Assembly: GCF_050920415.1 (NCBI RefSeq)
Contig: NZ_CP169309.1
Length of the DNA: 64,000 bases
Strand: one strand, 5' to 3'
Source of the DNA: Escherichia coli
Lineage (GTDB): Bacteria > Pseudomonadota > Gammaproteobacteria > Enterobacterales > Enterobacteriaceae
Of the stretch, positions 40,139 to 41,310 are shown piece after piece. The stretch's first letter is position 1, and the number at the start of each line of letters is the position of its first letter. Under the pieces are notes generated by a model. The model did no database searches. It was given only the letters and a program-made list of their open reading frames with translations, and was not told the DNA's origin. The position numbers and the translations under genes were made by a program.

Positions 40139-41310
40139 ATGCTGAGCAGAGAGGACTTTTACATGATAAAGCAAATGCGCCAGCAAGGTGCGTATATTGT
40201 TGATATTGCCACTCAGGTTGGTTGCTCTGAGCGGACTGTCAGACGGTACCTGAAATACCCGGAACCTCCGGCCAGAAAAACACGCCACAAAATGGCCAAA
40301 CTCAAGCCGTTCATGGACTATATCGACATGCGTCTGGCTGAGAATGTCTGGAACGGCGAGGTCATCCTGGCGGAAATCAAAGCGATGGGTTATACCGGTG
40401 GCCGTTCCATGTTGCGTTACTACATCCAGCCCAAACGTAAGATGCGGCCATCGAAGAAAACGGTTCGCTTCGAAACTCAGCCCGGTTACCAGCTACAGCA
40501 TGACTGGGGAGAAGTTGAGGCTGAGGTTGCCGGGCAACGATGCAGGGTTAACTTCGCGGTTAATACGCTGGGGTTCTCACGTCGCTTCCATGTCTTCGCG
40601 GCACCAAAGCAGGATGCTGAACATACCTATGAGTCACTGGTCCGCGCCTTTCGCTACTTCGGCGGCAGCGTGAAAACCGTGCTGGTCGATAACCAGAAAG
40701 CCGCAGTGCTGAAAAATAACAACGGGAAGGTGGTGTTCAACTCCGGGTTCCTGCTGCTGGCCAATCACTATGGCTTCCTGCCACGGGCCTGCCGTCCACG
40801 AAGGGCCAGAACCAAAGGTAAGGTGGAACGGATGGTGAAATACCTCAAGGAAAACTTCTTCGTCCGGTACCGCCGGTTCGACAGCTTCGCCCATGTTAAT
40901 CAGCTACTGGAGCAGTGGATGGCTGACGTTGCCGACAGGCGGGAACTTCGCCAGTTCAGGCAGACACCGGAACAGCGCTTCACGCAGGAACAGGTGCATC
41001 TGCAGGCGCTGCCAGGTACGGACTTCGATACCAGCTACTTCGATATCCGTCATGTCTCCTGGGATGGCTATATCGAGGTTGGCGGGAACCGTTACAGCGT
41101 GCCGGAAAGCCTGTGTGGCCAGCCGGTATCAATACGGATCTCGCTGGATGATGAACTGCGATTTACAGTAATGAGCAACAGGTAGCATTGCACCGTCTCT
41201 GTTCGGCTGTATACGGCTGGCAGACCGTGCCGGAGCATCACGCCCCACTCTGGCAGCAGGTCAGTCAGGTGGAACACAGGCCGTTGAGTGCCTATGAGGA
41301 GCTGTTGTGA
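40139..41310 (+). pseudogene. istA: IS21-family transposase IstA, apparently frameshifted near the 3' end
   Basis: 348-aa ORF (40139-41185) with N-terminal HTH and DDE integrase core; the remaining ~43 codons (...VALHRLCSAVYGWQTVPEHHAPLWQQ...) lie in the -1 frame and end at a TGA overlapping the istB ATG; frame switch required between 41155 and 41182. Confidence 0.7.

Follow-up and report, generated by a model that had tools for sequence, protein, structure and literature searches.

A one-nucleotide deletion in istA of an ISEc62-family element inserted in yhbX of Escherichia coli

An ISEc62-family element within yhbX

The window analyzed here is a 64,000-nucleotide stretch of Escherichia coli contig NZ_CP169309.1 (assembly GCF_050920415.1). 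Positions 1-40037 and 42162-64000 correspond to the conserved E. coli gltBD-arcB-rpoN-lpt-mla-murA-ftsH-yhbX-argG-nusA-infB-pnp-deaD-ubiUVT region, and this flanking region is collinear with the closest complete genome, that of E. coli MFDS1022581 (NZ_CP169399.1). A complete insertion sequence of the ISEc62 family (IS21-like), 2124 bp in length, occupies positions 40038-42161 on the + strand; three further copies and an unoccupied site served to set its limits. It interrupts yhbX, a gene of the phosphoethanolamine transferase family, after approximately codon 291 of 541; both the 5' part (39165-40037, + strand) and the 3' part (42162-42918, + strand) of the gene are collinear with MFDS1022581, in which yhbX is intact (1626 nt).

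The empty yhbX site of NZ_CP169399.1 reads CATAATTACC and contains one TAAT. Comparison with this site reveals a 4-bp target-site duplication, TAAT, on the left (40034-40037) and on the right (42162-42165) of the element, and three other copies are likewise bordered by 4-bp duplications (CGAC, GCTG and GAGT). Target-site duplications of 4-8 bp have been reported for the IS21 family. Since no element occupies this site in MFDS1022581, a genome that differs from the window by 8 substitutions over 62 kb, we consider the insertion to be recent.

The element begins with TG and ends with CA, as is characteristic of the IS21 family. The left terminal inverted repeat, TGTCAGCGCCAA (40038-40049, + strand), matches at 11 of 12 positions the reverse complement, TGTCAACGCCAA, of the right one, which reads TTGGCGTTGACA on the + strand (42150-42161, - strand repeat). 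The order of the two genes, istA (HTH and DDE domains) followed by istB (AAA+) on the same strand, is also that of IS21-family elements. Motifs containing TGTCCGC lie inside both ends at approximate positions 40078-40090, 42078-42090 and 42101-42113; on the left the motif is GGATTGTCCGCTCC, and on the right, read as reverse complements, the motifs are ATGTTGTCCGCTTGCC and TAATGTCCGCTATTGG. By their sequence, these sub-terminal motifs look like the multiple terminal repeats bound by IS21-family transposases.

The family assignment follows from a megablast search of 5,426 complete E. coli genomes with positions 40030-42170 as query. The element is 98.1-99.8% identical over approximately 2125 bp to copies annotated by PGAP as belonging to the 'IS21-like element ISEc62 family'; the genes of these copies are annotated as 'IS21-like element ISEc62 family transposase' and 'IS21-like element helper ATPase IstB'. 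Over its full length it is 99.8% identical to the ISEc62 copy of MFDS1022581, and it is one base shorter than intact copies (2125 bp in copy L002). ISEc62 elements reside on both chromosomes and plasmids of E. coli and share with the window element the TG...CA ends, the 4-bp duplication, the istA-istB order and a TGATG overlap between the two genes; the window element differs from them by having one G fewer, in codon 341 of istA, and by two missense changes of its own, D209N and S351L.

Reading frames of istA and istB

The list of open reading frames confirms the istA frame described in an earlier note on this DNA. The frame (40139-41185, + strand) runs from an ATG at 40139 to a TAG at 41183-41185, ends with ...ISLDDELRFTVMSNR and encodes 348 aa, 341 of them native and the last seven (FTVMSNR) out of frame. 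The product matches the NCBIfam model NF033546 (transpos_IS21, IS21 family transposase) with 280 bits for a cutoff of 160. A full-length IstA comprises about 390 aa with a complete β-barrel and C-terminal extension, whereas the frame found here ends at 348 aa.

The rest of the gene is found in the -1 frame. A TGA at 41152-41154 directly precedes the opening of this frame at 41155, from which it remains open through a TGA at 41308-41310, and the translation of 41155-41310 is identical to the peptide that the earlier note had read there. As the two frames overlap only across positions 41155-41185, the shift must be located within this interval. In the restored frame, the A of the TGA at 41308-41310 is also the first base of the istB ATG (41310-41312), giving TGATG. 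The same overlap is found in RefSeq-annotated intact copies, in which the last base of istA is the first base of istB, so that what had been taken for the normal IS21 istA-istB junction is indeed one. In its actual frame, istA stops 125 nt upstream of the istB start. The last 49 codons of the ancestral gene and its TGA (41161-41310, + strand, starting with IYSNEQQVALHRL) are now out of frame.

The helper ATPase gene istB (41310-42104, + strand) appears to be intact. Its 795 nt equal the length of annotated intact istB genes, and its 264-aa product, an AAA+ ATPase, matches NCBIfam NF038214 (IS21_help_AAA) with 297 bits for a cutoff of 200. A Shine-Dalgarno sequence, GAGGAG, can be read at 41296-41301, 8 nt upstream of the ATG. 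With istA now stopping 125 nt before istB, any translational coupling between the two genes would be lost, although the Shine-Dalgarno sequence of istB is kept; an effect on istB expression is predicted.

A missing G in codon 341

We fetched 13 related istA genes for comparison, 11 from ISEc62 copies and two from IS21-type copies (L015 and L016). All 13 are 1173 nt long (390 codons), carry CGG at codon 341 and remain in one continuous frame across the site, which follows the pattern CTG/CTA/TTG-CGG-ATT/ATC-TAC. Alignment with references, the check that the earlier note had proposed, leaves a single-base gap in the window: when it is aligned with three intact copies, the window has CTG CG- ATT TAC opposite CTG CGG ATT/ATC TAC of the references, and this is its only gap. 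The deletion site (41159-41161, + strand) thus shows C-G-A in the window for C-G-G-A in all relatives, with the remaining G at 41160. Judged from these alignments, the single-base gap at codon 341 is no chance pattern.

The sequence as found across the deletion is CTGCGATTTAC, and its G-restored counterpart is CTGCGGATTTAC. One G inserted after 41160 yields an IstA of 390 aa, collinear with the references and of the same length as RefSeq ISEc62 and IS21-type IstA proteins, as anticipated in the earlier note, which had expected a total of about 390 aa upon restoration of one nucleotide. That note had also placed the loss of one nucleotide between 41155 and 41182, in agreement with the alignment gap; the A of its illustrative repair, cga-att-tac, was not the right base, the lost nucleotide being a G of CGG. 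The G-restored IstA differs from that of the closest copy (L001, in MFDS1022581) only by D209N and S351L. In Pfam searches, the repaired protein contains HTH, rve and Mu-transpos_C_2 domains, the last at residues 291-357.

A subgroup of IS21-like elements with a naturally short IstA was considered and rejected, as 13 of 13 istA genes have 1173 nt, none of these relatives has an IstA ending at the truncated position, and the alignment with IS5376 IstA extends as far as the C-terminus. The outcome that would have refuted the earlier note, reference proteins with the same end, was thus not observed.

Distribution of the allele

The deletion is private to this ISEc62 copy. A 41-mer (41140-41180), built so that no 28-mer seed can avoid the deletion, served as the junction query, and neither the 5,426 complete E. 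coli genomes nor the 72,556 plasmids (PLSDB) contained a match; the repaired 42-mer, used as a positive control, matched its expected target and so validated the short-query design. A degenerate exact pattern of the junction found no match in GTDB species-representative genomes or JGI metagenome contigs, and the exact 348-aa product is absent from a gene-position index. A propagating frameshifted lineage is consequently rejected as far as these databases reach, with zero junction matches and the positive control found.

Two further substitutions in istA are private as well: 40763 G>A (D209N) and 41189 C>T (S351L in the restored frame). They were found in no complete E. coli genome and in no IS21-type relative, the IS21-type copies sharing the ISEc62 bases at both positions. 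Residue 209 is not conserved, since IS5376 IstA has a Ser at this position.

Mutation or sequencing artefact

The earlier note had left two alternatives, an inactivating mutation or a homopolymer sequencing error. The choice it offered was sound, and mutation is the likelier of the two; the word homopolymer did not hold, the run at the site being only GG. We favor a real single-G deletion in istA, with a probability of roughly 0.8.

This preference rests on the flanks of the element and on the site itself. Compared with MFDS1022581, the flanks (40,038 and 21,841 bases, 61,879 bp together) show 8 mismatches and 0 gaps, and indel-free flanks of 61.9 kb together with a site that is only a GG make a real mutation likelier than a sequencing error. 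The eight flank substitutions lie at window positions 4837, 6639, 8294, 8563, 10748, 26307, 44313 and 56455.

Were the missing G an artefact of sequencing or assembly, the actual element would carry CGG ATT and encode an intact 390-aa IstA. Insertion sequence copies are repeats, in which consensus polishing fails most often, and three private changes (the deletion, 40763 and 41189) occur within 2.1 kb, about ten times the density of the flanks. Such an excess may stem from a divergent source copy or from a poorer consensus quality within the repeat. We nonetheless regard an artefact as unlikely. The absence of gaps over 61.9 kb was obtained against an independently assembled, near-identical genome, which leaves an error-prone assembly unsupported and indicates that neither of the two assemblies is prone to indels. 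The site itself, a GG dinucleotide lacking nearby runs of at least 4 bases, is not a motif at which errors are frequent. Mis-polishing from an IS21 paralogue is not supported either: the private substitutions differ from the IS21-type state, and the IS21-type copies have CGG at codon 341, so that a related element would not explain the window sequence. Finally, finished genomes commonly contain disabled ISEc62 copies (2 of the 11 sampled).

Predicted effects on IstA

Taking the deletion as a real mutation, loss of one G from codon 341 (CGG) shifts the frame after Arg341 and leads, through seven unrelated residues, to the TAG. The product has 348 aa instead of 390 and retains its HTH modules at the N-terminus along with the DDE core. 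As Mu-transpos_C_2 spans residues 291-357, this domain is cut at 341/342. What the protein loses is the final part of the β-barrel (domain II-β-like, Mu-transpos_C_2) and the entire conserved C-terminal extension. The truncation removes Tyr343, which aligns with Tyr343 of IS5376 IstA.

Between the C-terminal tail (codons 342-390) and that of an IS21-type copy, we counted 12 synonymous and 5 non-synonymous differences, and an RPLS.Y motif is common to the tail and the Geobacillus IS5376 IstA. With synonymous differences prevailing in the restored frame and the motif shared, the tail was under purifying selection.

Solved structures exist for the IstA of IS5376 from Geobacillus stearothermophilus (PDB 8b4h, 8q4d). 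The distant orthologue encoded by this element aligns end to end with the repaired IstA (residues 1-388 with 1-393, E = 1.8e-82), has the same HTH-HTH-DDE-β-barrel-tail architecture and shares the aligned Tyr343, while its Arg345 corresponds to Asn345 here. In IS5376 the β-barrel (residues 300-355) stabilises the tetramer, and the C-terminal 45 residues make up a helical, flexible extension in which Gln369 contacts the flipped base, a Gln369 mutant being reduced in integration (PMC10122671). IstB docks via the β-barrel of the catalytic subunits, and stimulation of the IstB ATPase and IstB-dependent integration are both reduced when residues 343 and 345 are changed together (Y343A/R345A) or when the protein is cut down to residues 1-287 (PMC11208146). 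What has been measured in IS5376 concerns point mutants and a truncation at 287, whereas the cut considered here is at residue 341. A 2024 Nature paper states that the role of the IstA C-terminal tail remains undefined.

By analogy with the IS5376 IstA/IstB complexes, the truncated IstA would fail to dock productively on IstB and to become activated for integration. Transposase activity, and with it the transposition function of the copy, is thus probably lost. The copy would be a non-autonomous, decaying element, mobile only when IstA is supplied in trans by another copy. As a natural truncation falling just before Tyr343, a residue that contacts IstB in IS5376 according to structure and biochemistry, the allele would offer a natural test of the roles of the last β-strand and of the C-terminal tail.

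Recoding and inhibitory activity of the truncated protein

The truncation might also be tolerated or even used, either because -1 frameshifting or transcriptional slippage restores a low level of IstA, or because the truncated HTH and DDE protein poisons IstA tetramers of sister copies. We hold this to be very improbable.

For the first version, signals of recoding were sought. Programmed -1 ribosomal frameshifting is known from transposases of the IS3 and IS1 families; we know of no programmed frameshifting in the IS21 family. Positions 41140-41185 contain neither a slippery heptamer of the X XXY YYZ type nor an A-run, nor any homopolymer of at least 4 bases, and the 31-nt overlap of the two frames (41155-41185) is equally devoid of such heptamers in phase and of such homopolymers. 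The 97 nt of RNA downstream have a minimum free energy of -32.2 kcal/mol, as compared with -29.9 ± 3.2 kcal/mol for shuffled sequences (z = -0.72); the RNA hence folds no better than shuffles and shows no unusual structure. No Rfam match was obtained at E ≤ 1 in positions 39900-42300. The two-frame arrangement is not conserved, as a single continuous frame encodes IstA in 13 of 13 relatives. Programmed frameshifting, lacking a slippery heptamer, a homopolymer, an RNA structure, an Rfam match and a conserved arrangement, is accordingly rejected for this istA, and here the earlier note, which had not expected it, proved correct.

As to the second version, the truncated protein retains the DNA-binding and DDE modules through which tetramer contacts are made in the structure of IS5376 IstA (PMC10122671), which makes a dominant-negative effect physically conceivable. 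The insertion is also recent, the site being empty in a genome 8 SNPs away over 62 kb; a deletion older than the insertion would mean that this copy was necessarily mobilised in trans. One may then imagine that the G was lost before insertion into yhbX, with mobilisation in trans, and that a 348-aa IstA devoid of the IstB-docking surface would act as a dominant-negative damper of ISEc62 and IS21 transposition in the strain. If true, the strain would carry a transposition inhibitor of natural origin, in effect like the truncated transposase inhibitors of other insertion sequence families. We give this scenario very little credence. The allele is found nowhere else in the searched collections, which leaves no sign of propagation or selection.

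Relatives of the element and annotation

The preferred reading, a real deletion disabling istA, makes this copy an ordinary case of mobile-element decay: a pseudogenising one-nucleotide deletion that involves no new mechanism. Its significance extends little beyond annotation. istA should be annotated as a frameshifted pseudogene, the element as a probably non-autonomous ISEc62 copy, and yhbX as interrupted.

Single-lesion decay of ISEc62 is commonplace. Two of the 11 other ISEc62 copies are annotated as disabled, L001 by a frameshift in istB and L007 by an internal stop in istA. Like the window element, both are full-length and carry a single disabling lesion in one gene, each lesion being independent of the one described here and located elsewhere. 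L001 (NZ_CP169399.1, 142533-144656), the closest copy, lies in MFDS1022581 inside a yibH-like gene of the HlyD family and has an intact istA; its 'frameshifted' istB has lost one A from a run of six, equivalent to window positions 41394-41399. As L001 has lost istB and the window copy istA, the gene lost differs between the two most similar copies. L007 (NZ_CP028755.1, 2510993-2513226) comes from a bat isolate of E. coli, and its internal stop in istA represents an independent decay.

Elements annotated in E. coli as 'IS21-like element IS21 family' are more remote, with approximately 86% nucleotide identity over the 3' half of istA. Their IstA also has 390 aa and a near-identical C-terminal tail; they differ in being a separate named element whose frame is intact. 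The corresponding divergence of ISEc62 from IS21-annotated elements, about 14% at the nucleotide level, was obtained by comparing window positions 40700-41320 with L015 and L016. The IS21-type relative occurs in hundreds of E. coli records, 896 of which fall in the 80-90% identity band.
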